Below the pieces are notes generated by a model. The model ran no database searches. It worked only from the letters and a program-made list of their open reading frames with translations, and was not told where the DNA came from. Below are positions 1-35,576 of a stretch of 64,000 nt of DNA, piece after piece; the stretch's first letter is position 1, and every line of letters starts with the position of its first letter. A program made the position numbers and the translations under genes. The DNA is from Escherichia phage T5, in sequence record AY692264.1; one strand, written 5' to 3'.

Positions 1-29
1 GGGATTTCTCCTCATCAATTTATATAAAT

Positions 30-58
30 ATTATAACAAGAAATTAAGCATTAAGCAA
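30..58 (-). promoter_or_regulatory. sigma70-type promoter (leftward)
   Basis: Reverse complement TTGCTT-17-TATAAT. Confidence 0.5.
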
Positions 59-83
59 CTGCGTTTTTGAAATTTCTTGGACT

Positions 84-157
84 TGGTACTCGGTGATAGA
101 ATCGAACTATCACAACCGCCGTGTAAAGGCGGGGTTCTCCCATTATACTAACCGAGC
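84..157 (-). tRNA. tRNA-Val (anticodon TAC)
   Basis: Reverse complement folds as cloverleaf: acceptor GCTCGGT/ACCGAGT (G1-U72), anticodon stem CCGCC/GGCGG with loop TTTACAC, T-arm GATAG-TTCGATT-CTATC, CCA encoded. Confidence 0.6.
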
Positions 158-164
158 AAAAATT

Positions 165-242
165 TGGTGGGTTGCACAGGACTCGAACCTGTAACCTATG
201 GTTTAAAAGACCAGTGCTCTAAACCAGTTGAGCTAGCAACCC
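165..242 (-). tRNA. tRNA-Lys (anticodon TTT)
   Basis: Reverse complement: acceptor GGGTTGC/GCAACCC, D-arm GCTC..GAGC, anticodon loop CTTTTAA, T-arm ACAGG-TTCGAGT-CCTGT, CCA encoded. Confidence 0.6.
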
Positions 243-410
243 TTAGTAACCATTATATACTTCTTTAATAGTATGGACTTTCAAATAAAGGTGATTAGTA
301 CTAAACTCCGCCATTACTTCTTTTTCATTTTTTCCATAATGTGCAAGTAAGGATTTTGATGTATTCTTACCTAAACGTTTGTCACTTACTACTAATCGAA
401 ATACTTTCAT
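243..410 (-). CDS. hypothetical small protein (~55 aa, MKVFRLVVSDKRLGK...)
   Basis: Hand-found ORF below track threshold; AGAGGA Shine-Dalgarno 8 nt upstream of ATG; abuts tRNA-Lys. Confidence 0.3.
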   Translation of the reverse strand: MKVFRLVVSDKRLGKNTSKSLLAHYGKNEKEVMAEFSTNHLYLKVHTIKEVYNGY

Positions 411-430
411 TTCGAAATCCTCTATTAAAA

Positions 431-508
431 TGGAAGCGGGTGCAGGAATCGAACCTACCTCTTTCTAGCTTATGAGACTAGCGATCTCTACCAGAGATCT
501 AACCCGCA
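431..508 (-). tRNA. tRNA-Met or Ile2 (anticodon CAT)
   Basis: Reverse complement: D-arm GATC..GATC, anticodon stem CTAGT/GCTAG with loop CTCATAA, T-arm GTAGG-TTCGATT-CCTGC, CCA encoded; position 1-72 mismatch. Confidence 0.55.
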
Positions 509-514
509 ATTGTT

Positions 515-591
515 TGGTCTCCAATGAAGGACTCGAACCTTCAACCCCACCGCCCCAAACGGTGTACTCTAGCCAATTGAGCTAATCGGAG
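515..591 (-). tRNA. tRNA-Pro (anticodon TGG)
   Basis: Reverse complement: acceptor CTCCGAT/ATTGGAG, anticodon stem CACCG/CGGTG with loop TTTGGGG, T-arm GAAGG-TTCGAGT-CCTTC, CCA encoded. Confidence 0.6.
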
Positions 592-786
592 AAAATTATT
601 TCTTCAGCCACAACATGCTTAATCCTAGCATTGTAAAGCCTGTACTTAATCCTATTACCTTTTCTATCATAGAAAAGTTATCTATGTTAAATCCTACTAT
701 TACTATAGGGATAACCCAAGTACACATGAATACTGATGCAATTTTATACTTCACTTAGCTTTCCTTCTCTTCACTTTATAAGATAT

Positions 787-815
787 ATTATACAGAGAAT
801 TAAGCATAATAGCAA
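787..815 (-). promoter_or_regulatory. sigma70-type promoter, likely driving tRNA-Pro/Met/Lys/Val
   Basis: Reverse complement TTGCTA-17-TATAAT. Confidence 0.55.
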
Positions 816-964
816 CTACATTTTTCATAAATTTACTTATTGTGTAGGCCACCTGGAGGCTACCAACCCCACGGCTGACAAAGAAGTTTGCGAGACTTCT
901 CTTAAAAGCCAGAATAGACCCGCCGATCTATCGGAACCTACATAATAAGTAAACTTTATAGTGT

Positions 965-1085
965 CATCCTAGACAGGATTCGAACCTGCTATCACTTGTG
1001 CGGACTTACGAGAACCATTCTTTCACTCGAATCGAACGAGCTTCTGCCCTCGCCAAGTTGGTTTCCCCATCAACCACGCTAGAAT
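965..1085 (-). ncRNA. atypical tRNA-like element (~120 nt) with two T-arm-like hairpins
   Basis: 3' part has canonical T-arm GCAGG-TTCGAAT-CCTGT plus acceptor strand CTAGGAT; the only complementary 5' strand (ATTCTAG) is 120 nt upstream; a second hairpin GCTCG-TTCGATT-CGAGT lies inside; does not fit a canonical 73-93 nt tRNA. Confidence 0.3.
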
Positions 1086-1207
1086 GTTAGATTGTTTTCA
1101 GTGCAAGAGTCCGAGTCTTGGACACGACCGCTTCGCAAGTACATAGGCAGCTTATCATGAGTCAGCACTTCCGAATTGCTAGCTCCGTGTTCTGCACTGA
1201 AATTTTA

Positions 1208-1555
1208 TTAGTTTAACCGTAAAGTATTATCTACTTCACCATTAATTGTTCGGCACTCCTCTGGGATTGCCGGAGTGGCCTTGTATTCCCACCACTCAGC
1301 ACCATCATATTCCCCACGTTCTAGCCAAGTTCCGTCGGCAAACCATACATTACCATAAAGTAATTGTCCACCGTATCCAGAATCATATTCAAAGTCTAGG
1401 TTATCAAGAAAATCCTCAATATCTTCTTCTGTATAACCTAAAGGTAATACCCAAACTTTTTTATCCCCATAATACCCGAATTCTATTTTAATACACTTAA
1501 CTTCAGAATTAGTATTTTTTAAGGCAAGTAACAGCTCTTCTTTGGCATTACGCAT
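1208..1555 (-). CDS. hypothetical protein (115 aa from internal Met)
   Basis: Track ORF 1208..1642 trimmed to MRNAKEELL start so it does not overlap tRNA-Asp. Confidence 0.45.
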   Translation of the reverse strand: MRNAKEELLLALKNTNSEVKCIKIEFGYYGDKKVWVLPLGYTEEDIEDFLDNLDFEYDSGYGGQLLYGNVWFADGTWLERGEYDGAEWWEYKATPAIPEECRTINGEVDNTLRLN

Positions 1556-1580
1556 AGTATATTCCCATACTGAATTAATT

Positions 1581-1657
1581 TGGCGCGACCGATGGGATTT
1601 GAACCCACATTCTCTCCCGTGACAGGGGAGTACCATTACCAAGCCAGCCCCGGTCGC
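1581..1657 (-). tRNA. tRNA-Asp (anticodon GTC)
   Basis: Reverse complement: acceptor GCGACCG/CGGTCGC, anticodon stem CTCCC/GGGAG with loop CTGTCAC, T-arm GTGGG-TTCAAAT-CCCAT, CCA encoded. Confidence 0.65.
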
Positions 1658-1666
1658 ATAATTTAT

Positions 1667-1846
1667 TTACTCAGCTTTGAGTTGTGATTTCAACCAGTTA
1701 GTAAACCCCAGCTCAGTTACGCAATCTTTATCAATACGTTGCAGGTCTCCTAGAACCGTACTTAGATGCTTAACTGATACAGCGTCACCACTTTTGCGAG
1801 CAGCTTCAATCAACTCTCGCAGTACATAAAGCATATTCATGCCCAT
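1667..1846 (-). CDS. hypothetical small protein (59 aa, MGMNMLYVLRELIEAARKSGD...)
   Basis: Hand-found ORF; start overlaps stop of upstream small ORF (TAATG). Confidence 0.4.
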   Translation of the reverse strand: MGMNMLYVLRELIEAARKSGDAVSVKHLSTVLGDLQRIDKDCVTELGFTNWLKSQLKAE

Positions 1847-2016
1847 TATTTCATCCCCAATGCTTGGTTAAAAGATTGTTCTGTCATAACTGCTGAAACT
1901 TTGGCGAAATCAAACTTTTTAGGGTTCGTAGTGATCTCAGCAACGTTGGAAGTTTTAACAGTTTTCGTAGTACGAATACCGCGAGTGTTAACACCAATGA
2001 CGATCAAGTTTTTCAT
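1846..2016 (-). CDS. hypothetical small protein (56 aa, MKNLIVIGVNTRGIRTTK...)
   Basis: Hand-found ORF; GAGAGGAAG Shine-Dalgarno upstream of ATG; consensus promoter immediately upstream. Confidence 0.45.
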   Translation of the reverse strand: MKNLIVIGVNTRGIRTTKTVKTSNVAEITTNPKKFDFAKVSAVMTEQSFNQALGMK

Positions 2017-2047
2017 ATTTCGCTTCCTCTCATTAATTTATGAAAGT

Positions 2048-2076
2048 ATTATACAGAAGTTTAAGTATTTAAGCAA
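2048..2076 (-). promoter_or_regulatory. sigma70-type promoter
   Basis: Reverse complement TTGCTT-17-TATAAT upstream of the small-ORF pair and tRNA-Asp. Confidence 0.55.
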
Positions 2077-2084
2077 ATAAATTT

Positions 2085-2534
2085 TTAAGTTTTAGTGACA
2101 GCAGGCTTATAAAATGTATGTCCCTTAATCTTAGTTGTTTTCTTAAACTTCTTTGTCCAGTATGGTTTATCTTTACCACTATGGAAGTATAAAGCTCCAT
2201 GTGTAGGATCTTGTGGTAAATCAACGTAGTATATCACTCTAGCTAAATTCTTGGCGGTTTGCCAAGCCTCATCGGTTTTATCGACTTTTGGTCTCTTAGA
2301 TACCCAAGAGAACTGGTTAGACTGATATACTACTTTACAGTAGGAATCTGGAAATTTGCCGGAGTTTACACGGTTTTTAGTAACCTGTGCAACCGCCATC
2401 ATTCCCTTTATGCCCTCACCACGACTCTCGAAATAGATATTTTTAGCAATGCAATCTATTTCTTTTGCATCGTGCGATGCTTGACTACTAAAGCTGAAGG
2501 TAAGGGCAGCTACTAAAAGCAAAGCTGCCTTCAT
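2085..2534 (-). CDS. secreted SleB/CwlJ-like (Hydrolase_2 family) cell wall hydrolase
   Basis: Signal-peptide-like N-terminus MKAALLLVAALTFSFSSQA; motif ESRGEG..GMMAVAQVTKNRV...C.VVYQSNQFS resembles the SleB hydrolase domain; AGGAG RBS before the internal Met chosen as start. Confidence 0.55.
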   Translation of the reverse strand: MKAALLLVAALTFSFSSQASHDAKEIDCIAKNIYFESRGEGIKGMMAVAQVTKNRVNSGKFPDSYCKVVYQSNQFSWVSKRPKVDKTDEAWQTAKNLARVIYYVDLPQDPTHGALYFHSGKDKPYWTKKFKKTTKIKGHTFYKPAVTKT

Positions 2535-2539
2535 TCTTT

Positions 2540-2857
2540 TTACTCCTGCCAATCGTATTCAATACGATTGGGGTTTTCTTTGTATCCCAAGTCAAGCAAA
2601 TCATTACGCATAGTTTGCTTAGCTACGGGATTCGAGGTTACTAGTACCACTTTCTTTGGTCTCTGCCCAAATTCTAAAAGTAAACGAAGAATTTGATAAC
2701 CTTCCATACCATCTACAGCCAAATCGTTATCGAAATAAACAAAATGGCCAGTGGTATCAGTTTTATTCAGAAACTCGATAGCGGCTTCTGGGGTTCGAAT
2801 GATAATGTCCATTCCGTGAAGATTACGCACATCATCAATCAAAATATGAAAAGTCAT
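2540..2857 (-). CDS. hypothetical protein, possible CheY-like receiver fold
   Basis: 105-aa ORF with RBS and upstream promoter; pattern ILIDD...DNDL..GMEGYQILRLL...VVLVTSNP is receiver-like (weak). Confidence 0.5.
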   Translation of the reverse strand: MTFHILIDDVRNLHGMDIIIRTPEAAIEFLNKTDTTGHFVYFDNDLAVDGMEGYQILRLLLEFGQRPKKVVLVTSNPVAKQTMRNDLLDLGYKENPNRIEYDWQE

Positions 2858-2887
2858 AATAGCCTCGTTTCATCAATTTAAAAATAT

Positions 2888-2916
2888 ATTATACAGAAAA
2901 CTTAATAAATTAGCAA
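2888..2916 (-). promoter_or_regulatory. sigma70-type promoter
   Basis: Reverse complement TTGCTA-17-TATAAT upstream of 2540..2857. Confidence 0.55.
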
Positions 2917-3299
2917 ATACATTTTTAAATTGTGAAACTAGTAAACCGATAAACAGCCTAGAGGCGCCACAGGCCATATCTTACGAGCCATGTACCTTTG
3001 ATCTAGGGTTTGAATCATCAACGAATACTTTGCATCTTTTAGCTTTAGAAGTTTAGAAGTTTGAGTTCTTTAAACTTTTCAGCTTTCATACTTAAATGTT
3101 GATCTTTGAAGTTGTGTCGGTAATATCAACGACTTTTTGTTTTTACGTGTCAGATTAAATGTCTGATGTAATAAACATAATCTCCAATAGATTATACTTT
3201 ATAGTATGGTCAGCGGTCTTATTTAACCTCGTATTTCAACCGCTGCTGCGAGGTAAGATGCTTGGGCTTTCGTCTACCGATTTACTAGCTTTTAAATTA

Positions 3300-3938
3300 T
3301 TACTCTACTTCAATGAAGGTAGAGGCATTAGACTCGGACAGAACAAAGTCAACATTTGTTGCAAAGTCCTGGTATTCCTCGTCATGCTGTTTAATCAGCT
3401 TCTCCAGTCCCAGCGGATCAATCAAGAATGGAGTATTCTTGAGTTCCAACAGGTTGAGCTGCATTTTAACTTCATCTTCGGAAGTTTTCTTATCGCGGGT
3501 AGCCATGCTATCCTGCAAACGCTCATATTTAGCATCAAACTGTGCTTTCTGCGTATTAAACTTAACCGTAGCGGCATGGAACTGCTTACGCATATTAGCC
3601 AGCAACTGAGCTTTAAGCTCCATAGAACGCTTAGCTTCAATTGCTTCTGCAACAGTCATTTTACGAGAACCGATCTCAACGATCGTTTCTGCGTTGCTCT
3701 TAATCAGAGCAGCTTTGATACGATCACGCTGGGACATCATATCCAGCAGAGACTGGAAATCAGTCTTAATACGAGTAGACAGGGCATCTACTTCGATTGC
3801 GGCGCCAACTACAACCTGGTTTTTATCCTTACCTTCACCAACAGCGATCAGAAGCTGTTGTTCAGTAGCTTTACGGATTTTAGCTTCCAGAGATTTGATG
3901 GTTGCCAGAGCACGAGTTTTAGAAATACGAGTGGTCAT
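3300..3938 (-). CDS. hypothetical protein (212 aa, coiled-coil-like)
   Basis: ORF with AAGGAAG RBS; preferred over the antisense 3159..3956 ORF. Confidence 0.55.
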   Translation of the reverse strand: MTTRISKTRALATIKSLEAKIRKATEQQLLIAVGEGKDKNQVVVGAAIEVDALSTRIKTDFQSLLDMMSQRDRIKAALIKSNAETIVEIGSRKMTVAEAIEAKRSMELKAQLLANMRKQFHAATVKFNTQKAQFDAKYERLQDSMATRDKKTSEDEVKMQLNLLELKNTPFLIDPLGLEKLIKQHDEEYQDFATNVDFVLSESNASTFIEVE

Positions 3939-3990
3939 TGTTTCTTCCTTATATGAAGTTTAAGATTTGAATTTGTTTAAAGTTGGTCTA

Positions 3991-4173
3991 TTACAGACCA
4001 ATTGCCAGTAGGGTACGCAGAACAGTATCTTTACTGTTATCAATTTTAGGATTAGCACGATTTAGCAGATCAAAGATTTTCTGGACACCTGATTGACGTT
4101 CAGCCATACGACGGATACCCAGATTACGAGTAGCTTTCTTACCATTTTTACGAACATTTTTAGATACTGGCAT
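3991..4173 (-). CDS. small basic protein (60 aa)
   Basis: Lys/Arg-rich ORF; conserved leader AAAAGGAAAACAAAT before ATG; promoter upstream. Confidence 0.5.
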   Translation of the reverse strand: MPVSKNVRKNGKKATRNLGIRRMAERQSGVQKIFDLLNRANPKIDNSKDTVLRTLLAIGL

Positions 4174-4213
4174 ATTTGTTTTCCTTTTGTTGTTTTCTCA
4201 AATTTATGAATAT

Positions 4214-4242
4214 ATTATACAGAATTTTGAAGCTGGAAGCAA
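4214..4242 (-). promoter_or_regulatory. sigma70-type promoter
   Basis: Reverse complement TTGCTT-17-TATAAT upstream of 3991..4173. Confidence 0.55.
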
Positions 4243-4243
4243 A

Positions 4244-4945
4244 TCAAATTTTGATTTTTTCGACCATAGCTGCAACACAATAGCTCTCAACTAAGGCATC
4301 GAATGCTGGGTCATGTTTAACTGGGTAGATTCCATAACGAATGGTGTCCATCTTCTCCATCTTAGCTTTTGCCCAGCTAATCCCCTCTGCTTCTAGGTCT
4401 TTGTAGCTATAACCAGCCTGCATCCAGAGATTGCGGAGAGATCGAACATTGCCCAAGTTCCAGAATTTCCACGGAACTATTTCTTCATTGGTTCCAGCAT
4501 GAAACGTATTTGCAGAATAGATAGTCATATCAAATTCTGGGCCGTTGCCATAATACAAAGCATTCTCACCTAGAGCCAACTCCATAATATTTTGGGCCAT
4601 AGAGTAAGCAGCATAGTTAGAGCCGAGTTTATTAGTACAACGATGTTTACCATTTTGGAATGCAATCAGCTTTGGATTACGATCGTTCATAGCTTCCATA
4701 ATATGGAGAGCTGATGGACTATTTTTAGCTTGATCCATCCAGAATGCTAGAGTAGATGCCGTAACTTTAGCTCCAGAATTAAGCTGATCTTGTACATCCA
4801 AAGTAACAAACACTAGATCGGGGTCTTTATCAATTCCATGCATAGCCACAAAAGCGAAAGAAGGCATTGCGATATGAGTAGTACCGCAATCTCCTGGAGT
4901 TCCTAGAGATTCAATATCTAGCATACCAAATGGTTTTACTTTCAT
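4244..4945 (-). CDS. DEDDh-family 3'-5' exonuclease (DnaQ/RNase T/DexA-like)
   Basis: Motifs LDIESLG (Exo I), FD (Exo II), HDPAFDALVESY (Exo III H-x4-D). Confidence 0.65.
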   Translation of the reverse strand: MKVKPFGMLDIESLGTPGDCGTTHIAMPSFAFVAMHGIDKDPDLVFVTLDVQDQLNSGAKVTASTLAFWMDQAKNSPSALHIMEAMNDRNPKLIAFQNGKHRCTNKLGSNYAAYSMAQNIMELALGENALYYGNGPEFDMTIYSANTFHAGTNEEIVPWKFWNLGNVRSLRNLWMQAGYSYKDLEAEGISWAKAKMEKMDTIRYGIYPVKHDPAFDALVESYCVAAMVEKIKI

Positions 4946-4973
4946 AACTTATCTTTTATTGCGTAGAAAACTA

Positions 4974-5210
4974 TTAAAGAGCTGTCTCTTTAATAGACTC
5001 CCACTTCTTGAGGTCTTTAGAACCAGGAAGCATATCCTCACTGACATCCCAGTTCTCTTCCATAGAGAAGTCAGGCCATTCATTCCAGCTACCTTCCAGC
5101 TCTTCATAACAGGTATTCATTACCTCATGACTAGAAAGTCGTGTATAATCTCTAGCGGATTTATGGGTGCTAGCACGGTTAAAATCATTCTTTGCTACAA
5201 AATTACGCAT
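4974..5210 (-). CDS. hypothetical protein (78 aa)
   Basis: ORF with TGGAGAA RBS; same strand as neighbours; the overlapping plus-strand ORF 4959..5228 is rejected. Confidence 0.45.
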   Translation of the reverse strand: MRNFVAKNDFNRASTHKSARDYTRLSSHEVMNTCYEELEGSWNEWPDFSMEENWDVSEDMLPGSKDLKKWESIKETAL

Positions 5211-5217
5211 AGTTTCT

Positions 5218-5243
5218 CCAAAATATGAGGGGCTTTCGCCCCT
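5218..5243 (-). terminator. rho-independent terminator
   Basis: Hairpin AGGGGC-GAAA-GCCCCT followed by T-rich run on minus strand. Confidence 0.55.
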
Positions 5244-5252
5244 ATTTATCTA

Positions 5253-5768
5253 TTACTTCGCTTTACGCTTGCGAGCTGGTTTAGCAGATTTACGAGCAGA
5301 ATCGCCCGTGAATTTAATCCCTACACCGTAGCACAGAGCACGAACGTTATCTTTGCTATACTCTACACCGAAGATATTTGGCTTAACAGAACCAAACTGT
5401 CCACGAGCATCACGCAGTACATCTGCCGTTGGTTTACGCTTCTGGTTAACTGCTTTCTCATAATCTTTCATGGCCATGCCATTACGAGAGAACAATTCAG
5501 CTCCAGCATTGAAACTCAGTGTTACTGGAACAGATTTGTGACCATAACCCTGTACATAGGTCACAAGGCGGGCTACAGAACGAGTAGCATTCTTAGCCTT
5601 CGGCTTTTGACGAATCGGAGCCGGACGATTCAGTGCCTGTGCAGCTTGAGCATCAGTAGGATGCTTGCGCAGGTGGCGTTCCAGACGAGCTTTGCGGTTA
5701 GCCTCAGTCTGCGGGAAAGTTTTAACTGTAGTAGCTGCTTGAGTTTTTGCGTTTTTCTGCTTAGCCAT
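5253..5768 (-). CDS. hypothetical basic protein (171 aa)
   Basis: Lys/Arg-rich termini; conserved AAAAGGAAAACAAAT leader; terminator hairpin downstream. Confidence 0.55.
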   Translation of the reverse strand: MAKQKNAKTQAATTVKTFPQTEANRKARLERHLRKHPTDAQAAQALNRPAPIRQKPKAKNATRSVARLVTYVQGYGHKSVPVTLSFNAGAELFSRNGMAMKDYEKAVNQKRKPTADVLRDARGQFGSVKPNIFGVEYSKDNVRALCYGVGIKFTGDSARKSAKPARKRKAK

Positions 5769-5806
5769 TATTTGTTTTCCTTTTTGTTTATCAATTTATG
5801 AAGTAT

Positions 5807-5835
5807 ATTATACGAGAATTTGAAGCGTTTAGCAA
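5807..5835 (-). promoter_or_regulatory. sigma70-type promoter
   Basis: Reverse complement TTGCTA-17-TATAAT upstream of 5253..5768. Confidence 0.55.
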
Positions 5836-5851
5836 ATGAATTTTTTAAAAA

Positions 5852-6130
5852 TTATCTGCCGACCATCTTAGCTTGTTCTTCATCAGAAACGTATTGATAT
5901 GCACCCTTGTTATACGCCGGAGCAGTGCACATCTTCTTACGCTCAATTTCTTCTTGAGCTTTACGTTCACGTTCTGCCAATTCCTCATCCAGATAAACTA
6001 AACGTTGTTCTGGAGGAGGTGGAAGACGTGTTTCTGGCTCACCAATATTAGCCTTTCTTATTTGACGAGGTGATTGTGCACGTTTTCTCAACGGTTTAAA
6101 TCCTAATGAATTTGAGTTATAAATTCGCAT
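5852..6130 (-). CDS. hypothetical protein (92 aa)
   Basis: ORF with GAGGAGGG RBS. Confidence 0.5.
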   Translation of the reverse strand: MRIYNSNSLGFKPLRKRAQSPRQIRKANIGEPETRLPPPPEQRLVYLDEELAERERKAQEEIERKKMCTAPAYNKGAYQYVSDEEQAKMVGR

Positions 6131-6157
6131 AAAGCCCTCCTCACTTTCAATACGAAT

Positions 6158-6186
6158 ATTATACTAAATTAGAGGGCTTTAAGCAA
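6158..6186 (-). promoter_or_regulatory. sigma70-type promoter
   Basis: Reverse complement TTGCTT-17-TATAAT; flanked by inverted repeat AAGCCCTC/GAGGGCTT. Confidence 0.5.
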
Positions 6187-6206
6187 GAAGATTTTTAATT
6201 TATTTA

Positions 6207-6683
6207 TCACATCTCGGCCATTTCAGCTTCAGTAATAACTGTGTTACACAATGCATCTACAGCTTCATTACCACTAATACCAGAATGTCCTTTAACCTTA
6301 ATAAAGGTAGGATTAGTATTGTGGAAGTTAATGTATTGCTGGGTTAATTTAAATGCTTCTTGCCAAAGTTCTAGATTAAGAGGAACTTCACCATCTGCTT
6401 TCTTCCAGCCTTTCCTTTGCCAAGAGAACATCCAGCTTTCCATACCATTTTTGCAATAAGCAGAATCAGTATAGATAACAATTGGTCTATTATCTTTTTT
6501 AACTGACCAACGTAGAGCTTCTACAATAGCTGTGAGTTCCATCTCATTATTTGTAGTTTTAGGACTATAACCAGATTTAGAGCCTAAACGATCGTCGTTA
6601 TCATCATAGACAATAAAACCCCAAGCACCCGGGCCAGGGTTGGACTTACAAGCGCCATCTGTATAAACATGGAAAACTGACAT
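6207..6683 (-). CDS. rnhA: ribonuclease H
   Basis: YTDGAC..NPGPGAWGF RNase HI signature; ATG start with GGAG RBS chosen over the track TTG start. Confidence 0.8.
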   Translation of the reverse strand: MSVFHVYTDGACKSNPGPGAWGFIVYDDNDDRLGSKSGYSPKTTNNEMELTAIVEALRWSVKKDNRPIVIYTDSAYCKNGMESWMFSWQRKGWKKADGEVPLNLELWQEAFKLTQQYINFHNTNPTFIKVKGHSGISGNEAVDALCNTVITEAEMAEM

Positions 6684-6734
6684 TATTTGCTCCAATTAAT
6701 AGTTACCCAATAGCCTTCACGCTAATTATGATCA

Positions 6735-6764
6735 AGTAAAATATATTATATTTGAAATTATACC
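6735..6764 (-). promoter_or_regulatory. sigma70-type promoter for rnhA
   Basis: Reverse complement TTGCTT-18-TATAAT. Confidence 0.5.
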
Positions 6765-6782
6765 TAATAAGCAAGTACAATT

Positions 6783-6810
6783 TCAAATATAATAGCCCCC
6801 GAAAGGGCTA
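6783..6810 (-). terminator. rho-independent terminator after thyA
   Basis: Hairpin TAGCCC-tttcgg-GGGCTA followed by TTATATTTG on minus strand. Confidence 0.5.
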
Positions 6811-6816
6811 TTTGAG

Positions 6817-7656
6817 TTAAGAAGACATCTTAGCTTTAAGAGCTGGGTGAGGATCGTACCCCTCTAAATGGAATGACCAAGCTGCCGTATTATTTTCTAG
6901 TAAGTCGTAAAGATCTACAAATTCTGGCATTACTAGAGTCGGTAGAGGGCGTGGCTTGCGTTTTACCTGTTCTTCTACCTGTTCCATGTGGTCATTATAG
7001 ATATGAGTATCACCGCCACTAAAGATAAGATAACGAGGTTTTAATCCTGTCAGTTTTGCTAATATATGCGTTAGCAAAGCATAGCTAGCAATATTGAAAG
7101 GTAAACCGAGGAAACAATCCACAGAGCGTTGTGTCCATTTAAGATCTAGGTATCCATCGTTACTTACATAGCACTGGAAGCCGTAGTGGCAAGGGGGTAA
7201 TGCCATTTTATCAAGTTCAGCTACGTTCCATGCAGAAACTAGATGTCTGCGGCCATGAGGATTATTCTTGAGTCCTTCAATAAGTTCTAGAATCTGATCT
7301 CGCCCACCAAAGTTACGCCACTGTTTACCATATACTGGTCCTAGATTACCCTTATCATACCCCATACTTATAGCTTGGTCTTCATAATTTGGAGTCCAGA
7401 TGGTCCACTGTCCTTCGTCACGACCAAATGTGAATACACGTAGATCATGAAGATTTGTGGAACCAGACAAGAACCATAAAAGTTCTCCTACTACTGATTT
7501 CCAGGCTAGGCGTTTAGTAGTTACAGCCGGGAACCCTTCACGTAGGTCAAACTTAGCATAGGAATCAAAAATTGAAACTGTGCCCGTTCCTGTACGGTCA
7601 TTACGGGGTTCACCTAGTAAAATTACATCTGTCAAAATTTTTAAGTATTGTTGCAT
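6817..7656 (-). CDS. thyA: thymidylate synthase
   Basis: 279 aa; LPPCH catalytic-Cys motif and overall ThyA pattern. Confidence 0.9.
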   Translation of the reverse strand: MQQYLKILTDVILLGEPRNDRTGTGTVSIFDSYAKFDLREGFPAVTTKRLAWKSVVGELLWFLSGSTNLHDLRVFTFGRDEGQWTIWTPNYEDQAISMGYDKGNLGPVYGKQWRNFGGRDQILELIEGLKNNPHGRRHLVSAWNVAELDKMALPPCHYGFQCYVSNDGYLDLKWTQRSVDCFLGLPFNIASYALLTHILAKLTGLKPRYLIFSGGDTHIYNDHMEQVEEQVKRKPRPLPTLVMPEFVDLYDLLENNTAAWSFHLEGYDPHPALKAKMSS

Positions 7657-8189
7657 TAATAAGTAACCAATTCCTGTACAAATCGCAGGCTGTTATCACT
7701 GTTTGCGCCAACTGCATAGACTAATCGAGTGGATTCATAGTTATAATCCAGTATCATACTATCTAGGTGTGTATCTGCTTCTAGTTTCTGCTCGCTAAAG
7801 ATTGTAGATACAAAAGCACTTTCAATATGCCCATGTTGGTACATTTCTAGAAGAAGATTAGCTCCACCTAGAACTACTGTTTGCTGATCTTTTAGAAAAG
7901 TAGGTAATGTATCACCTATCATTGATATGGGAGTGTAAATATCGTGTGTAATATCATCTGGCAGTGGACGATCAGCACGAATAAATAGGTCAGAAGCCCC
8001 AATCATACGTTCCCTAACGGCATATGGAAGAGCTAAATAAGTACCTGCCCCAATAATAATATTATCAGGATTTAGTACATCTAATTGTGAATAAAAAGCA
8101 TCTAGTTCTTCTTTAAAAGAACCCCAGGGAAGCTTACCTCGGAGGCCGAACTCCCCATTCGGCCCAACTGCATACATTGCTGTAATCAT
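7656..8189 (-). CDS. frd: dihydrofolate reductase
   Basis: 177 aa; N-terminal DHFR pattern (GPNGEFG..LPW); start overlaps thyA stop. Confidence 0.8.
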   Translation of the reverse strand: MITAMYAVGPNGEFGLRGKLPWGSFKEELDAFYSQLDVLNPDNIIIGAGTYLALPYAVRERMIGASDLFIRADRPLPDDITHDIYTPISMIGDTLPTFLKDQQTVVLGGANLLLEMYQHGHIESAFVSTIFSEQKLEADTHLDSMILDYNYESTRLVYAVGANSDNSLRFVQELVTY

Positions 8190-19488: not shown

Positions 19489-22275
19489 GTGTTTTCTATC
19501 CTCCAAGGTCACGCCGGATTTTCTCGTGATTTAGCAACAGGTATTTGGCGAGAAATCAAAGCGGAAGATTATACCTTTGCCAAGCGATTCTCGAAAGAGC
19601 ATCCAGAAGGTAAACCAGCTTCTATGCCCTTCAAATTTGATGTAATAGAAGAGCACGACCCACAAAGCCTTGCCGAAATGTTACCCCTCATGAGACGTTT
19701 AACGTCTGACCCTCATATCGTTGCGGTGCGAGGTCGATGTCTCGCACCTAAAAATAATGTGCGACGTAAGAAAGGTAACTTTAATGTATCTAATCCTAGT
19801 AATATTATTGCTATGGACGTGGATGGTATCCTAGATACCGGTGGGTATGACAAATTTAATCTTGTTGGTATGGCCCGCCACATTATTAAGATGTTGAATA
19901 GTATTAGTGAGGATATGTTTCCTCTTGATGCAGGGTTTATTGCTCATGCATCGTCTTCGGCTGGGCTAAAACCAGGTATCCGAATGCACTTAATGCTAGA
20001 ATCTAACGTCAAGGTAACTCAGGGTCAGCTAAAGTTCTTATTTACATCTATCAACGATAGTAGTAAGCAAAAATTTGGTTTTGATATTGCCGACCTAGCT
20101 TATTATTCATCTGTCCAGCTCCACTATTTTGCCGACCCCTTATTTAGCGATGGTATTGTTGATCCGTTTAAAGCGGAGAGTAAGCCACGTCTGGTGTATG
20201 TTAAAGGTTCGAAAGTAAATTTGCCCAATAATCTGGTTGACTATGAAACAACTAGAGGGGAGTTTAAGGAAGGGTTTTATTCTTTACTTGATCAAATTAA
20301 AGGCAAAAAGATTGCTTCTGATAAAGTAGAAGAAACCATCAGCGAGTTAGAAGAGGCTGATGATGGAGTGTATTTGCGTATTATCCCCAAACTATACCAT
20401 AGAGCATTAGAGGATGGTGTTGATTTTGCATGGCTAGAACGTGAGATTAAACCAGCTTTATCTGAATATATTGCAACTAAAGATAACAGTCGTAATATTC
20501 AAGATTACTTTAATAACGGTCGTAAGCAGGCTCTCAAAGCGTTTGTTAATAATTCTAAACGTGAGATTCCATTAAATCTGAAAGGTGTTCCACTTAAGAA
20601 ATTAGAAGTGGATTCTCCACCAGAAGTTCCATACCTGAAGATTAACATTGTGCCCCCAAAAGGCCATATAACATTTGTTAAGGCAAGTCTTGGTACTGGT
20701 AAAACTACGGCAGTAACTAAATGGCTGGACGCAGGTGTTCTTCCAGGCAACTTTTTAGCAGTTACAAATACTAGAGCACTGGTATCTTCAAATGCCAAGA
20801 AATTTAGTGCAGGACAATACGATAAGTCTGTAGATATGCTCAACTTTAAACGTGGAGCTATCGATCGTATGTCCACAACTATTCACTCTTTGCATAAGTT
20901 CAAAAGTTTTATTGGGCAAATAGACACCATTTTTATTGATGAATGTGACGCTGTAATGAATGACCTATTATTCGCCCCTGTTGTTAAACAACGTCGCGAG
21001 TGTATTCAAGTTCTACGTGACATCCTTATGACAGCTAAGACTGTAATCTTATCCGATGGTGATATTAGTGCTGAGACGATTGAAGCATATGGTTCTCTAA
21101 TTGATTTTGATAAACCAGTAGCATTTTATAATCATCACCGTAAAATGCTGTCAAAAGCACACGCTTATGAGTTTCCTGATGAATCCAGTATTTGGGTTGC
21201 ACTTCAGACTTCTCTAGAGATGGGTGAGAAATCTATTCTAGTATCTGATTGTGGCCCGGATGAGCTGAATGAGAAGGGTATGGCACTGCGTCGTAATACG
21301 GGTGCGTTAGTTAAGGAAATCCATTCAAACTCCACCTCAGATGTGGATATTCGACGTATTCTGGATTATACAACTAATGAGCTAATTGATCAACAAATTG
21401 ATTGCTTATTATGTAGTCCATCCGTAACGAGTGGCGTTGACTTTAACTATTTCGATAATGTGTTTGTTATTACTAGAACCAGTAATCAAGCGCCAAACAT
21501 GCGTTTCCAAGCAATCAGGCGCGACCGTGGTGCCCAGAACATCTATTATTTTATTGATAAATCTACGAGTGGATTCTCTGCAGGTTCTGAGCAATATAAT
21601 ATTGATGAAGGTTGGCTGGAGTTAGCACAGCAATTATACGCACGTCGTAGAGAGCTGGAATCTAGAAACTATACTAGTACCTTACGTTATTATTTGCTTG
21701 ATCAGGGTGCAACTATTGATATTTTCAGCGAAAGCTGGGGAACTATTGAAGGTGCTGGTAAAGAATATACAGAAGAGCGAATCAAAGCTATTCTGCATTC
21801 AACTCCAGATTATTGTGCCCCACGTCATGCAGATGCATATGAAGCTAAACTACTTCTTGTTCGCTATTATCATCTTGAGTCTATTAAAGATGTAACAGTT
21901 GAGCATGTCGAACAATATATCAAAGATAAACCGAATGATCGAGCTGCATTCTTCCATAAGATGCACGAGATGTTCTGGGAAGATATTAAGAAGTGTTCAA
22001 ATGTGACCATTAAACCATTCATAGAGGCTCTGAAAGGTAAGAAGAAAGACTTCTTCCTTAAAACAGGTCAGAGTGCCAACCCAAAATATGCTAGAATGTA
22101 TCTTGGTATGATGGGTATTGGTAAGGATATGAACACTGAAAATATTGTAGACTGGTACAGAACCTATTGTAAAATCGAGTGTATGCCAATTCCTTTCAAA
22201 TTCATGACAGAGGAAGAGAGGGCTATGGCAGAAGAAGTAATGTCCGAACTTGGAGCAACTAATGAAGATGCATAA
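19489..22275 (+). CDS. UL9-like SF2 helicase / putative replication origin-binding protein
   Basis: 928 aa; GTG start with AGGAG RBS; Walker A SLGTGKTT, motif II IDECD, further SF2 motifs. Confidence 0.65.
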   Translation: MFSILQGHAGFSRDLATGIWREIKAEDYTFAKRFSKEHPEGKPASMPFKFDVIEEHDPQSLAEMLPLMRRLTSDPHIVAVRGRCLAPKNNVRRKKGNFNVSNPSNIIAMDVDGILDTGGYDKFNLVGMARHIIKMLNSISEDMFPLDAGFIAHASSSAGLKPGIRMHLMLESNVKVTQGQLKFLFTSINDSSKQKFGFDIADLAYYSSVQLHYFADPLFSDGIVDPFKAESKPRLVYVKGSKVNLPNNLVDYETTRGEFKEGFYSLLDQIKGKKIASDKVEETISELEEADDGVYLRIIPKLYHRALEDGVDFAWLEREIKPALSEYIATKDNSRNIQDYFNNGRKQALKAFVNNSKREIPLNLKGVPLKKLEVDSPPEVPYLKINIVPPKGHITFVKASLGTGKTTAVTKWLDAGVLPGNFLAVTNTRALVSSNAKKFSAGQYDKSVDMLNFKRGAIDRMSTTIHSLHKFKSFIGQIDTIFIDECDAVMNDLLFAPVVKQRRECIQVLRDILMTAKTVILSDGDISAETIEAYGSLIDFDKPVAFYNHHRKMLSKAHAYEFPDESSIWVALQTSLEMGEKSILVSDCGPDELNEKGMALRRNTGALVKEIHSNSTSDVDIRRILDYTTNELIDQQIDCLLCSPSVTSGVDFNYFDNVFVITRTSNQAPNMRFQAIRRDRGAQNIYYFIDKSTSGFSAGSEQYNIDEGWLELAQQLYARRRELESRNYTSTLRYYLLDQGATIDIFSESWGTIEGAGKEYTEERIKAILHSTPDYCAPRHADAYEAKLLLVRYYHLESIKDVTVEHVEQYIKDKPNDRAAFFHKMHEMFWEDIKKCSNVTIKPFIEALKGKKKDFFLKTGQSANPKYARMYLGMMGIGKDMNTENIVDWYRTYCKIECMPIPFKFMTEEERAMAEEVMSELGATNEDA

Positions 22276-33624: not shown

Positions 33625-34114
33625 TTTCAAATTGCCCGTCTATGCGTTACGGGCGTTTGTATCAATTGAGCAAGAAGGTGATTATTCCGTAATTACAACA
33701 AGATATAATAAATATGTGCTAGATAACAGGAAGTTGCCTGGCACGTTTTCTCAACGTAGGCTTATTCTATTTGAGAAACGGAAAGAATTACCATACAAGC
33801 TCTATCCTATTAGGGGTAGAATATCAATGTTGTCTCAATTAGTTGGGTCAAAGCGTAACCAATTTATAGATTCTGATGGAAATCTTATTAATTGGAAGAA
33901 AACTACGTTCTATGATGTTGTCACCTCTAAAGTTTTGCATTCAGCTAGAATTTATAATGGAAAATACCAATGCTATGTGGCTAAAGTCCCTTATCCATTT
34001 GTATTATCCTATGTTCCAGCTTATATAAGCTATATTCTGGTAAATAATAGCCCTGTTATTTATCAAGTCCATCAAGAGGAGCCTGAAATTCCTAGACTTA
34101 GAATAAAATTATGA
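33617..34114 (+). CDS. hypothetical protein
   Basis: GTG start overlapping polymerase stop; an alternative ATG at about 33827 has a GGGGT RBS. Confidence 0.45.
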   Translation: MLDFKLPVYALRAFVSIEQEGDYSVITTRYNKYVLDNRKLPGTFSQRRLILFEKRKELPYKLYPIRGRISMLSQLVGSKRNQFIDSDGNLINWKKTTFYDVVTSKVLHSARIYNGKYQCYVAKVPYPFVLSYVPAYISYILVNNSPVIYQVHQEEPEIPRLRIKL

Positions 34115-35463
34115 AGGTTGTTATATCTAATAAAGCCTATTTCAAGCCCGATGATGAACTTTGGGATTATTGTAGTAAGCAAACCACTTATCACATAGAG
34201 ACAATGACTAGTAAATACCCTATTATGTATAAGAATAGTGGTGTTGTTGCCAAAGAGATTAAGTGGATTCCTATTACGCGTCTGGACTTATTAGATGCTA
34301 AAGGAATAAAATACGAATTAGTCGATAAACGCACACTAGCACCGGTAGATATACCAAAACCTAAGTTCAAGCTGCGTGAAGAAGATCAGCTTCCAATATA
34401 CGAAGAATGCGATGATACCTGTATTATTAATGGTAAGCCTGGGTTTGGTAAAACTATCCTAGCACTTGCACTTGCGTATAAATTTGGCCAGAAAACTTTA
34501 GTAATCTGTACGAATACATCCATTCGTGAAATGTGGGCGGCAGAAGTTCGTAAATGGTTTGGGTTTGAACCAGGTATCATAGGTTCTGGGAAATACAATA
34601 TTGATCCGCCAATTGTAGTCAGTAATATTCAAACAGTGAATAAACATGCGAATAATCTTTCTAAAGTATTCGGTACTGTTATAGTTGATGAAGTTCACCA
34701 TTGTGTGGCTACAACTTTCACTAACTTCCTAGAAATATCATGTGCTCGCTATAAAATTGGACTATCCGGTACACTAAAACGAAAAGACGGTTTACAAGTT
34801 ATGTTCAAAGATTTCTTTGGATATAAGATATTTAGCCCGCCGGTTAATAATACTGTTGCACCTACAATCCATAGGTACTCCGTGCCTGTTGAGCTATCAG
34901 GAAACCAAAACGTACCGTGGGCATTACGTGCTAACGATGTGTATAATCATCCTGAATATCGAGAGACTATTATAAACCTAGCACATTTATATGTGAATAT
35001 GGGACATAAAGTACTCATTGTAAGTGATAGAACAGAGTTAATCCAAACAATACTAGAAGCTTTTACACAGCGTGGTGTTACAACCTATGAAATTATAGGA
35101 GCAACCCACTTAGATGACCGATTAAAAATTCAGGAAGATATAGCAAAAGGCGGGCCGTGTGTGCTTGCAGCAGCTCAAAGCATCTTCTCTGAAGGTATTT
35201 CACTTAACGAGCTGTCTTGTTTAATAATGGGAAGCCTCATTAATAATGAATCTCTCATTGAACAGCTTGCAGGCCGTGTTCAACGTATTGTCGAGGGTAA
35301 ACTCGACCCAATCGTTGTAGATCTAATTATGAAAGGTGGCACTGGGTTAAGGCAGGCTTCTGGACGTATGGCAGTATATCGTAACAACGGGTGGAAAACT
35401 ATTACTATGACTCCGGAGAAAGCAGTTCAATTAGCTAAAATTGCATTTGGCAACAGCTCATAA
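34111..35463 (+). CDS. SF2 DEAH-box helicase (T5 D10-like)
   Basis: 450 aa; Walker A GKPGFGKT, motif II VDEVHH. Confidence 0.8.
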   Translation: MKVVISNKAYFKPDDELWDYCSKQTTYHIETMTSKYPIMYKNSGVVAKEIKWIPITRLDLLDAKGIKYELVDKRTLAPVDIPKPKFKLREEDQLPIYEECDDTCIINGKPGFGKTILALALAYKFGQKTLVICTNTSIREMWAAEVRKWFGFEPGIIGSGKYNIDPPIVVSNIQTVNKHANNLSKVFGTVIVDEVHHCVATTFTNFLEISCARYKIGLSGTLKRKDGLQVMFKDFFGYKIFSPPVNNTVAPTIHRYSVPVELSGNQNVPWALRANDVYNHPEYRETIINLAHLYVNMGHKVLIVSDRTELIQTILEAFTQRGVTTYEIIGATHLDDRLKIQEDIAKGGPCVLAAAQSIFSEGISLNELSCLIMGSLINNESLIEQLAGRVQRIVEGKLDPIVVDLIMKGGTGLRQASGRMAVYRNNGWKTITMTPEKAVQLAKIAFGNSS

Positions 35464-35546
35464 ATGATGTATAATATATACATAAATTTGAGAGAGAAAG
35501 TTTCGGATTGATAAGAAAGTCCGAAGCAGAAAAATAAAAATTTTAG

Positions 35547-35576
35547 TTGCTAAATTCTCTCGAAATCTAGTATAAT
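35547..35576 (+). promoter_or_regulatory. sigma70-type promoter
   Basis: TTGCTA-18-TATAAT; a second TATAAT box lies ~100 bp upstream at about 35470. Confidence 0.55.

Follow-up and report, generated by a model that had tools for sequence, protein, structure and literature searches.

Does the open reading frame at positions 2085-2534 of the window, i.e. of the whole stretch of 64,000 nucleotides of Escherichia phage T5 DNA analysed here (AY692264.1), encode a peptidoglycan-degrading enzyme that leaves the cytoplasm early in infection, and which role could such an enzyme play in a phage that has a holin, an endolysin and spanins of its own? The initial annotation had described a SleB-like hydrolase with a signal peptide at this locus; its coordinates are exact, and the strand, which it had not given, is the minus strand. 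The reading frame runs from ATG at 2534 to TAA at 2085-2087, encodes 149 amino acids and is 100% identical to phage T5 42290-42739, i.e. to gene T5.083 (window position = T5 coordinate - 40205). The gene is thus already on record, being listed as sleb in the 2005-era T5 records, and its detection is a correct re-discovery and nothing new. GenBank labels it 'sleb, spore cortex-lytic enzyme precursor' and RefSeq 'endolysin', and papers on T5-like phages already comment on a gene of this type as a second 'endolysin' distant from the holin. In the literature we found no functional study of T5.083 or any orthologue, genome descriptions alone mentioning the gene, and the HIDEN-SEQ and anthracycline papers make no mention of T5.083.

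Catalytic family, fold and spread

The gene and the parts of its product comprise the following features:

2085-2534, minus strand: T5.083 coding sequence, 149 amino acids plus stop (YP_006911.1 / AAX12015.1), predicted exported SleB/CwlJ-family (Hydrolase_2) lytic transglycosylase
2544-2548, minus strand: Shine-Dalgarno sequence AGGAG, 8 nt before the T5.083 ATG, read from the sequence
2478-2534, minus strand: predicted cleavable Sec signal peptide MKAALLLVAALTFSFSSQA, codons 1-19, cut after SQA (hydropathy, -3/-1 rule)
2088-2477, minus strand: mature catalytic domain, codons 20-149, ~15 kDa, pI 9.7, with a basic C-terminal tail (SleB alignment)
2427-2429, minus strand: codon of Glu36, the predicted catalytic residue in a YFESRGE motif (conservation and SleB alignment)
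2451-2453, minus strand: codon of Cys28, half of a candidate periplasmic disulfide (co-conservation)
2337-2339, minus strand: codon of Cys66, the candidate partner of Cys28 (co-conservation)

The open reading frame list offers a TTG at 2552 as start; the placement of AGGAG favours the ATG at 2534, which we thus take as the start codon. The Shine-Dalgarno sequence overlaps the 3' end of the upstream gene T5.084, whose TAA lies at 2540-2542. A 10-bp mRNA hairpin adjoins the Shine-Dalgarno sequence and is marginal when compared to shuffled sequences (z = -2.1; 9 of 200 fold as well).

The initial annotation had reported a SleB/CwlJ-type motif and had proposed an HMM search as a check. This search bears the motif out, as T5.083 matches the Pfam profile PF07486 (Hydrolase_2) with an E-value of 1.4e-26 and 93.5 bits (cutoff 27), all profile positions (1-100 of 100) being aligned to residues 39-142 and the catalytic Glu being kept. 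The protein also matches PHROG 938 'endolysin' (1.4e-30). When the sequence is compared to the PDB, the SleB catalytic domains 4f55 and 4fet are the sole matches (E ~1e-8), the alignment spanning residues 22-141 with an identity of ~32%. The same domains are found with the AlphaFold (AF2) model of T5.083 (mean pLDDT 92.3), for which 4f55, 4fet_A and 4fet_B are the top three Foldseek matches (E 5e-6 to 1e-5) with TM (target) values of 0.77-0.80 and an rmsd of 2.4-2.6 Å (2.4 Å over 120 columns); only SleB domains are significant, the next match having an E-value of 1.6.

Glu36 is invariant, being found in each of the 91 homologues with sequence at this position, and its counterpart in 4f55/4fet is the Glu in the YGESRGE motif. 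By chain arithmetic on 4fet_B its equivalent is residue 151 of the SleB precursor, which we take to be the published catalytic residue. The catalytic glutamate of SleB is essential (PMC12331253, PMC11148199). Since T5.083 shares both the fold and this glutamate with the SleB catalytic domain, we read it as a probable transglycosylase.

Nevertheless, T5.083 is not SleB proper. Its score with the NCBIfam equivalog TIGR02869 (spore_SleB) is 52.7 bits, i.e. far below the cutoff of 236.5 bits, and the match is limited to profile positions 79-201. The profile search revealed neither an N-terminal peptidoglycan-binding domain nor any second Pfam domain. T5.083 is therefore a member of the SleB/CwlJ catalytic family with a CwlJ-like single-domain layout. 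Of the term 'SleB-like hydrolase' the assignment to the catalytic family holds, whereas SleB itself is excluded and the word hydrolase is inexact, as the chemistry of the Hydrolase_2 family is that of a lytic transglycosylase and strictly not that of a hydrolase.

The mature part of T5.083 has a dN/dS of 0.06-0.2 and is under strong purifying selection, i.e. the gene is functional. Within the Demerecviridae its position is kept in Tequintavirus, Epseptimavirus, Sugarlandvirus and Novosibvirus, and copies with at least 60% identity are present in 523 phage records, as compared to 526 for the canonical endolysin Lys; these similar counts imply that T5.083 accompanies Lys and does not replace it. 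The closest cellular relatives share 35-45% identity and stem from Rhodospirillales, Sphingomonadales, Rhodobacterales, Burkholderiales and Gammaproteobacteria, some of them being located on Mb-scale chromosomal contigs; these small SleB-like proteins of Alpha-, Beta- and Gammaproteobacteria presumably have hydrophobic leaders and a periplasmic location. As a search of 5,426 complete E. coli genomes yielded no T5.083-like DNA, the phage appears to add an activity that is absent from its host at that level of similarity. Family members also occur in other virulent phages. In Vequintavirus nomo the gene adjoins rIIA/rIIB, and in Pakpunavirus EM the member gp037 has an N-terminal anchor that looks uncleaved; in both phages, as in the Demerecviridae, the gene is found among early or metabolic genes and not beside lysis genes.

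Predicted export signal, cysteine pair and genomic setting

The N-terminus of T5.083 reads MK-AALLLVAALTFSF-SSQA/SHD (the slash marks the predicted cut) and combines a basic n-region, an h-region of 13 residues (Kyte-Doolittle maximum 2.96), and small residues in positions -3 and -1. Residues 3-21, 19 in all, are uncharged. The Sec signal peptide that had been proposed is thus well supported as a prediction, both by this architecture with its SQA/S site and by the retention of a leader across homologues. The signal peptide call was made with a home-made heuristic for hydropathy and cleavage motif, which for T5.083 also proposes residues 14 and 16 as places of cleavage. It is passed by 65 of 91 homologues, but most of the failing ones nonetheless have a hydrophobic N-terminus, so that the heuristic appears too strict on cleavage motifs, and a hydrophobic N-terminal leader is present in nearly all of the 91. 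In six Demerecviridae orthologues the leaders comprise 17-22 residues with hydrophobic cores of 9-13 residues, and five of the six contain an [AS]-x-A motif. At the same time the sequence of the leader diverges fast among orthologues (pN 0.09-0.54), i.e. what is conserved across homologues is a predicted Sec-type leader as a feature, not its sequence. Only two residues separate the predicted cleavage site from the start of the SleB homology at residue 22. In the AF2 model residues 2-37 form one continuous helix, the leader having a lower pLDDT of 72-79. T5.083 as a lipoprotein can be ruled out, as there is no Cys before residue 28, and so can Tat export, as there is no RR motif. The prevalence of predicted export signals among lysins of Gram-negative phages has been surveyed (PMC8223927).

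Of 92 sequences, 89 contain both C28 and C66, and the two are jointly missing in the homologue P0091 and in Bacillus SleB. This nearly invariant pair suggests a disulfide, which would form in the periplasm.

The surroundings of the gene contain three further features:

2540-2857, minus strand: T5.084, upstream gene, 105 amino acids, with a receiver-like domain (Pfam PF20274 cREC_REC, E 3.4e-15)
2862-2936, minus strand: early promoter (T5 43067-43141) upstream of T5.084-T5.083, from RefSeq and AY587007 ('putative early promoter T5P23')
2022-2096, minus strand: promoter P-D/E 33 for the downstream genes T5.082/T5.081, overlapping the 3' end of T5.083 (RefSeq)

T5.084 and T5.083 are probably co-transcribed, and P-D/E 33, as annotated, would mark the end of this unit. 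In a consensus scan the upstream promoter shows the hexamers TTGCTA-17-TATAAT at 2916-2888, with 10 of 12 positions matching the consensus, although such matches are no commoner in the region than in shuffled sequence. The putative 'early' timing of T5.083 combines this match with the annotation. A functional coupling of T5.084 and T5.083 was considered and rejected, as their adjacency is not conserved beyond the Markadamsvirinae: judged from size and annotation, Sugarlandvirus and Novosibvirus have another gene upstream of their T5.083 counterpart. The counterparts of the two genes in Epseptimavirus S132 have an additional ORF between them.

The gene had been placed in a tRNA-proximal early region, far from any lysis cassette. 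The distance is real: the annotation of T5 ~38.9-101.9 kb, i.e. of the window up to its last ~2.3 kb (~T5 101.9-104.2 kb), contains neither a holin nor an endolysin nor a spanin, and both the lys/holin genes (T5 19.9-21.0 kb) and the Rz-like spanin genes (22.5-23.2 kb) are located upstream of the first window position. T5.041 (20341-20997), the closest holin in the annotation, is about 21-22 kb away from T5.083. The proximity to tRNA genes holds for tRNA-Asp at 1581-1657, four further tRNAs being located at 84-591, but an 8.2-kb deletion in the T5 variant of the window contributes to it. A search for phage records that span the junction of this deletion gave no match. Likewise, the early position agrees with the annotated promoter, but it is no distinguishing mark of T5.083, since the T5 holin and endolysin genes are located in the early region, too.

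Possible role in the infected cell

The best explanation, which we consider reasonably probable, is that T5.083 is a Sec-exported lytic transglycosylase with a SleB fold that serves as a dispensable accessory to lysis. It is not the main endolysin of T5, which is Lys (T5.040), acting with holin T5.041 and spanins T5.044/045. The steps given below, from export, cleavage site and disulfide to the transglycosylase reaction on E. coli peptidoglycan, the timing and, above all, the role of T5.083, are inferred. The gene would be transcribed from an early sigma-70 promoter as second gene of the two-gene unit T5.084-T5.083, and the 149-aa precursor would be exported by the Sec pathway and cut after SQA by signal peptidase I, which would remove residues 1-19. 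The basic, 15-kDa mature protein would then fold in the periplasm, where a Cys28-Cys66 disulfide would probably stabilise it, and most likely would cut the MurNAc-GlcNAc glycan bond as a lytic transglycosylase in the manner of the SleB catalytic domain, with Glu36 as single acid/base and 1,6-anhydro-MurNAc ends as products. Acting from the periplasm, T5.083 would most likely weaken the sacculus in advance or serve as a backup for its degradation.

Two analogies are consistent with this role. In Bp10, a phage of the Chaseviridae, the gene directly after an annotated holin encodes a family member whose leader resembles that of T5.083, suggesting that the family is capable of lysis, and a T6SS effector, whose E108, the counterpart of the SleB glutamate, is essential for toxicity in the periplasm of E. 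coli, shows that the SleB fold can attack the ordinary E. coli wall. Bacillus SleB has been reported to recognise muramic-delta-lactam; as the E. coli wall does not contain this modification, activity of T5.083 on E. coli peptidoglycan is not guaranteed. Moreover, a soluble, active enzyme that is exported early should lyse the cell before progeny is made, so that the model needs low activity, low expression, a restricted substrate or some form of restraint.

Fitness data are available from a CRISPRi-ART screen, in which knockdown of T5.083 was scored 'Not Fit' (mean -3.97, p 0.73; PMC11879866 supplement). The same data set gives 'Fit' for holin C1, no more than 'Semi-Fit' for the major head protein, and 'Not Fit' for the major tail protein, for the spanins and for lys (PMC11879866 supplement). 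As genes like these scored alike, the result for T5.083 is weak evidence.

Alternatively, the same molecule might be non-lytic and remodel peptidoglycan early in order to condition the envelope, which we regard as possible, though on balance not probable. Possible aims would be a change of the envelope that is directed against superinfecting phages, an influence on turnover, division or vesiculation, or the processing of wall states that Lys handles poorly. Such a role would fit the fact that three unrelated lineages of virulent phages have the gene in the company of early or metabolic genes, even if position says little on timing given that the T5 holin and endolysin are early-region genes as well; early export would also be easier to reconcile with a steady remodelling at a low level than with a lytic burst at a set time. 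Loss of the SleB homologue of Zymomonas alters morphology, cross-linking and stress tolerance, not lysis, and the combination of purifying selection with a knockdown that has no cost in laboratory culture is expected of a condition-dependent function. However, the Chaseviridae member clearly fills the endolysin slot. Auxiliary lysis, superinfection and envelope remodelling are indistinguishable by sequence tools.

A further possibility, quite unlikely in our view, is that the leader is not cleaved but acts as a signal-anchor-release (SAR) domain that, as in P1 Lyz or R21 of phage 21, tethers T5.083 to the inner membrane in an inactive state until the holin depolarises the membrane, making it a second holin-triggered endolysin. 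This would explain how the protein can be synthesised early without premature lysis, and it would be in line with the 19-residue uncharged stretch, with the closeness of Glu36 to the leader, with the uncleaved-looking anchor in Pakpunavirus EM and with a group of 159-aa homologues (e.g. P0053 and P0063), whose leaders are Ser/Thr-rich and weakly hydrophobic and have no obvious cleavage motif. Yet the hydrophobic core of T5.083 is just 13 residues long (orthologues: 9-13) and rich in Leu, Val and Phe rather than in Gly and Ala, and a canonical [AS]-x-A site is found at the expected distance in five of six orthologues. Moreover, the leader of phage K42, with ~17 residues in total, is too short for a stable membrane span, and that of T5.083 has no Cys for a disulfide switch of the P1-Lyz type.

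Finally, it is very unlikely that T5.083 is a peptidoglycan binder or a weak or decayed enzyme with a structural or regulatory role, or that it is not exported at all: the silent knockdown, a potential need of SleB-type enzymes for a substrate feature that is missing in E. coli, and the continuous helix 2-37, due to which the leader could in principle belong to the fold, would agree with it, but the catalytic Glu and its surrounding motif are invariant, the mature domain is strongly constrained, the SleB homology begins only at residue 22 behind a leader of lower pLDDT that evolves like a signal peptide, and a toxin with SleB fold acts on the E. coli wall in the periplasm.

Returning to the exported transglycosylase as the preferred reading, we tentatively suggest, and consider it doubtful, that T5.083 represents a distinct class, i.e. 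exported SleB-fold transglycosylases that exist beside a canonical endolysin in Demerecviridae, Vequintavirus and Pakpunavirus. In one version of this proposal T5.083 would be a holin-triggered backup route to wall degradation, which would explain why the T5 holin is fitness-relevant in CRISPRi-ART and lys alone is not; in the other it would serve non-lytic, early envelope conditioning.

T5 is a model phage, and T5.083 is one of its two genes for peptidoglycan degradation outside the virion; close copies are found in ~520 sequenced T5-like phages, many of which are candidates for therapy or biocontrol. If T5.083 is indeed a periplasmic transglycosylase, the textbook holin-endolysin-spanin picture of T5 lysis would have to be extended by a second route or by a wall-remodelling step unrelated to lysis, and automatic 'endolysin' labels as well as counts of 'multiple endolysins' would need qualification. 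It would also provide a muralytic domain that is compact, basic and stabilised by a disulfide, acts outside the inner membrane and might be of use in the engineering of enzybiotics.

Relation to known systems

T5 Lys and T5.083 both are encoded in the early region and are peptidoglycan-degrading, as known for the former and predicted for the latter, but they belong to unrelated families. Lys (PHROG 465) is an L-alanyl-D-glutamate peptidase that targets the peptide stem and its gene adjoins the holin gene, whereas T5.083 (PHROG 938) is predicted to target the glycan bond. Lys depends on the holin and is not known to have a signal peptide. In general, canonical holin-dependent endolysins are cytoplasmic and encoded in the lysis cassette; T5.083 lies elsewhere and has a predicted Sec leader.

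Endolysins that reach the periplasm via Sec and need no holin holes are known from Oenococcus phage fOg44 (Lys44), P1 (Lyz) and phage 21 (R21). These are main endolysins encoded in lysis cassettes, and their restraint by membrane tethering, dependence on the proton-motive force or disulfide caging has been demonstrated. The Lys44 type is characterised by an n-h-c signal with a signal peptidase I site of the A-x-A type, and the predicted leader of T5.083 has this architecture; compared to SAR endolysins, it looks cleavable rather than SAR-like.

With Bacillus SleB/CwlJ (PF07486; 4F55, 4FET) T5.083 shares the catalytic family, the fold and the essential glutamate of the YxESRGE motif as well as a precursor with an N-terminal signal, and its single-domain layout resembles that of CwlJ. 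In contrast to T5.083, SleB has an N-terminal peptidoglycan-binding domain and no Cys pair corresponding to C28/C66. Moreover, the phage that encodes T5.083 is virulent and infects a Gram-negative bacterium that does not sporulate and has no muramic-delta-lactam in its wall; a specificity for this feature of the spore cortex, as in SleB, is presumably of no relevance here.

The nearest cellular kin of T5.083 are small proteobacterial SleB-like proteins, e.g. SleB from Zymomonas mobilis, a homologue that affects growth, morphology and cross-linking (bioRxiv 10.64898/2026.07.21.739787). The metagenomic and phage homologues have a similar size, almost all have a hydrophobic leader, and the Cys pair is present in 89/92 sequences; the proteobacterial genes are cellular housekeeping genes, whereas T5.083 is a phage early-region gene. 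Among phage proteins, gp35 of Escherichia phage vB_EcoM_Bp10 (Chaseviridae) has the catalytic family, a hydrophobic leader and the host genus in common with T5.083, with ~36% identity over 66% of the query. Its gene, annotated as endolysin, lies immediately downstream of an annotated holin gene, whereas T5.083 is ~22 kb away from the holin gene.

Finally, the T6SS effector T6EC3 has a SleB-like fold with an essential glutamate and is toxic in the periplasm of E. coli (PMC11148199). Its relation to SleB was found by structural similarity alone, and the fold forms the C-terminal toxin domain of a large T6SS effector that is accompanied by an immunity protein, whereas T5.083 is phage-encoded.

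Gene model and genomic setting of T5.083

The region 2085-2534 highlighted in the initial annotation corresponds exactly to T5.083, a minus-strand gene (T5 42290-42739) with a product of 149 aa that is annotated as 'endolysin' in RefSeq (YP_006911.1) and as 'sleb: spore cortex-lytic enzyme precursor' in GenBank (AY587007). The ATG at 2534 is preferred to the TTG at 2552 found in the ORF list because AGGAG is located 8 nt upstream, where it overlaps the stop codon (TAA) of the gene before it. The features flanking T5.083 are, in window coordinates:

2862-2936: early promoter annotated in T5, upstream of T5.084 and then T5.083; sigma-70 consensus match 10/12
2540-2857, minus strand: T5.084, annotated as hypothetical; cREC_REC receiver-like domain
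2022-2096: next annotated promoter, overlapping the 3' end of T5.083

Residues 4-87 of T5.084 match Pfam PF20274 (cREC_REC, 'cyclic-phosphate processing receiver domain', E 3.4e-15), which supports the 105-aa RefSeq model over the 55-aa ORF079 of AY587007. The domain hints at T5.084 acting in the repair of RNA or tRNA, and its location beside the tRNA cluster would suit such a function. A functional tie between T5.084 and T5.083 was dropped, as their adjacency is not kept outside Markadamsvirinae. In Salmonella phage S132 (Epseptimavirus) an extra hypothetical gene of 174 aa, orf72 (1972-2496 of the compared locus L085), separates orf71, the T5.084 homologue to which the 'HNH endonuclease domain' note belongs, from the SleB-like gene, showing that the two genes of the predicted unit need not be contiguous. 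At 2549-2571 lies a perfect 10-bp inverted repeat, CCAATCGTAT-TCA-ATACGATTGG. On the plus strand it has a terminator-like score and a T-run behind it; on the minus (mRNA) strand it lies within the 3' end of T5.084 and stops one base ahead of the T5.083 Shine-Dalgarno sequence, the local fold being marginal (z = -2.1). Possible functions of the repeat are tuning of T5.083 translation or termination of antisense transcription.

Two further neighbors carry questionable labels. T5.087 (4244-4945, minus strand) is an 'exonuclease' in RefSeq, but a 'putative metallopeptidase' in T5 record AY543070 and related phages, and AY587007 lists it as ORF082, with a note naming M14 carboxypeptidase; its Pfam match is the Rv2179c-like 3'-5' exoribonuclease domain (E 4.5e-8). 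T5.085 (3300-3938, minus strand) is labelled 'tail fiber protein' despite its early-region position, and searches of Pfam and NCBIfam gave no convincing match.

Window 1-1683 and 1674-8000 are 100% identical to T5 31998-33680 and 41879-48205 (NC_005859), respectively. Thus, the window represents T5 with a deletion of 8,198 bp in the tRNA region (T5 33681-41878), and from 1674 on window coordinates equal T5 coordinates minus 40205. At the junction (1674-1683) 10 bp are common to the two flanks, so the deletion may be of microhomology-mediated origin. Deletions of comparable kind are known from heat-stable T5 mutants; no junction-spanning record was found in the phage collection. Of T5.081, a gene for 144 aa when intact that is annotated as 'tRNA amidotransferase' or YqeY-domain protein, the deletion leaves ~57 codons, now part of a 59-aa fusion ORF (1667-1846, minus strand). 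The deletion also brings tRNA-Asp (1581-1657) to ~430 nt downstream of the T5.083 end. T5.083 is tRNA-proximal, as had been stated, but its closeness is exaggerated by the deletion.

The distance from the lysis cassette holds: the annotation of T5 38.9-101.9 kb, the listed part of the window's region, contains no gene for a holin, endolysin or spanin, and lys and holin (19.9-21.0 kb) as well as the Rz-like spanins (22.5-23.2 kb) are all located upstream of the window start. Early expression, also proposed initially, would be in line with the annotated promoter, but as the lysis genes lie in the early region, too, early placement alone cannot set T5.083 apart from them.

A SleB/CwlJ-type domain behind a predicted export signal

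T5.083 covers the entire Pfam Hydrolase_2 profile (PF07486; E 1.4e-26, 93.5 bits, cutoff 27 bits) and matches PHROG 938 'endolysin' (1.4e-30). Its sole sequence relatives in the PDB are the SleB catalytic domains 4f55 and 4fet (Bacillus cereus, B. anthracis; E ~1e-8, residues 22-141), which are also the only significant Foldseek matches in the PDB (target-normalised TM 0.77-0.80, rmsd 2.4 Å, 32% identity; next match E 1.6) of an AlphaFold2 model computed from 36 homologues (mean pLDDT 92.3). Moreover, Glu36 in YFESRGE aligns with the Glu of SleB YGESRGE and is kept in all 91 database homologues covering the position. Thus, the SleB/CwlJ-type motif is real. According to secondary sources the SleB glutamate is essential to lytic transglycosylase activity (PMC12331253), and in a T6SS effector with SleB fold the equivalent Glu is essential to periplasmic toxicity in E. 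coli (PMC11148199).

Residues 1-19 read MK-AALLLVAALTFSF-SSQA, with SHD coming next. The n-region is basic, the hydrophobic core spans 13 residues and reaches a Kyte-Doolittle value of 2.96, and positions -3 and -1 are occupied by Ser and Ala. The leaders of six Demerecviridae orthologues are highly divergent (0.09-0.54 non-synonymous differences per site; mature part 0.02-0.46, <0.06 in the closest pairs), and a 9-13-residue core is present in all six and an [AS]-x-A motif at the same distance in five, which, judged from sequence, is a signal-peptide mode of evolution. A crude signal-peptide test was passed by 65 of 91 homologues; nearly all others are still hydrophobic near the N-terminus, except for two truncated fragments, one mis-started and one leaderless sequence. 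Taken together, n-region, core, -3/-1 residues and orthologue leaders predict a Sec signal peptide, in agreement with the initial annotation. The main alternative, an uncleaved anchor of the signal-anchor-release (SAR) type, finds some backing in the SAR-like appearance of certain distant homologues; a core that is short and rich in Leu/Val/Phe, together with a good cleavage site, speaks against it. The leader contains no twin-arginine motif, and a lipoprotein is rejected as the first Cys is only at residue 28.

C28 and C66 occur together in 89/92 sequences. Two sequences lacking C28 alone are N-terminally truncated, and the single full-length protein without C28 also lacks C66; Bacillus SleB has neither. 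This co-conservation suggests a C28-C66 disulfide, which would suit a periplasmic location.

Conservation and proposed role

The mature domain has pairwise dN/dS values of 0.06-0.2 (pairs with unsaturated synonymous sites), and the gene constantly occupies the edge of the early block beside the tRNA region in Tequintavirus, Epseptimavirus, Sugarlandvirus and Novosibvirus. At ≥60% identity (tblastn) copies are found in 523 phage records as compared to 526 for Lys (T5.040), the canonical endolysin; thus, T5.083 appears to travel with Lys, accompanying rather than substituting for it. The orthologue of Salmonella phage Kenya-K42 (2501-2941 of locus L088) is a mosaic, its C-terminal ~40 residues being those of T5 and its N-terminal two-thirds ~60-70% identical, suggesting intragenic recombination.

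In the CRISPRi-ART screen, beyond which we found no functional data on T5.083 in the literature, T5.083 is 'Not Fit' (mean -3.97, p 0.73; PMC11879866, supplementary file 16), as are lys and both spanins, while holin C1 is 'Fit' (PMC11879866). This is a weak sign of dispensability because major structural genes also score weakly there. The 'Not Fit' genes may reflect either limited knockdown sensitivity or redundant wall degradation; the holin/lys pattern is compatible with redundancy of Lys and T5.083 without demonstrating it.

Based on these findings we propose a mechanism that, as a whole, we regard as somewhat favored: T5.083 would be transcribed and translated early, exported via Sec and cut after Ala19, and would then fold oxidatively into a soluble, basic periplasmic lytic transglycosylase (15 kDa, pI 9.7) using Glu36; the enzyme would assist the holin-Lys-spanin pathway without being required for it. 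The weakness of this model is that a soluble muralytic enzyme, if active and exported early, ought to lyse the cell prematurely. The model therefore needs some restraint, for which weak activity, weak expression, a restricted choice of substrate or a dependence on the energised state of the membrane may be postulated. The initial observation is confirmed and its interpretation partly supported; having long been annotated in T5 and commented on in T5-like genomes, the feature is not novel.

Relatives in phages and bacteria

In Bp10 (Chaseviridae) a Hydrolase_2 protein with similar leader, annotated as endolysin, directly follows the annotated holin. The homologue of Vequintavirus nomo (rV5-like Escherichia phage) overlaps the start of rIIA, with rIIB next (the cluster spans 2402-4881 of locus L091), and that of Pakpunavirus EM lies amid nucleotide-metabolism genes; both have an N-terminal hydrophobic leader. 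Both rII genes have been linked to keeping the membrane intact and to resisting premature lysis, and the nomo cluster may be a functional neighborhood. From these placements, the family can probably act as exported endolysin and is apparently also a recurrent 'orphan' outside the lysis cassettes of large virulent phages.

No T5.083-like DNA was detected in 5,426 complete E. coli genomes. The nearest cellular relatives (35-45% identity) come from Rhodospirillales, Sphingomonadales, Rhodobacterales, Burkholderiales and Gammaproteobacteria, some encoded on Mb-scale chromosomal contigs, and metagenomic homologues have comparable size and N-terminal leaders. A SleB-like member from Zymomonas is reported to influence growth, morphology and cross-linking, the group being described as otherwise unexplored (2026 preprint, bioRxiv 10.64898/2026.07.21.739787). 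T5.083 is not SleB proper, as it scores 52.7 bits with the SleB equivalog model (cutoff 236.5 bits) and matches only the C-terminal part of that model. Whereas SleB has an N-terminal peptidoglycan-binding domain, for which T5.083 has no room, T5.083 resembles CwlJ in being a single catalytic domain, here placed behind a leader.
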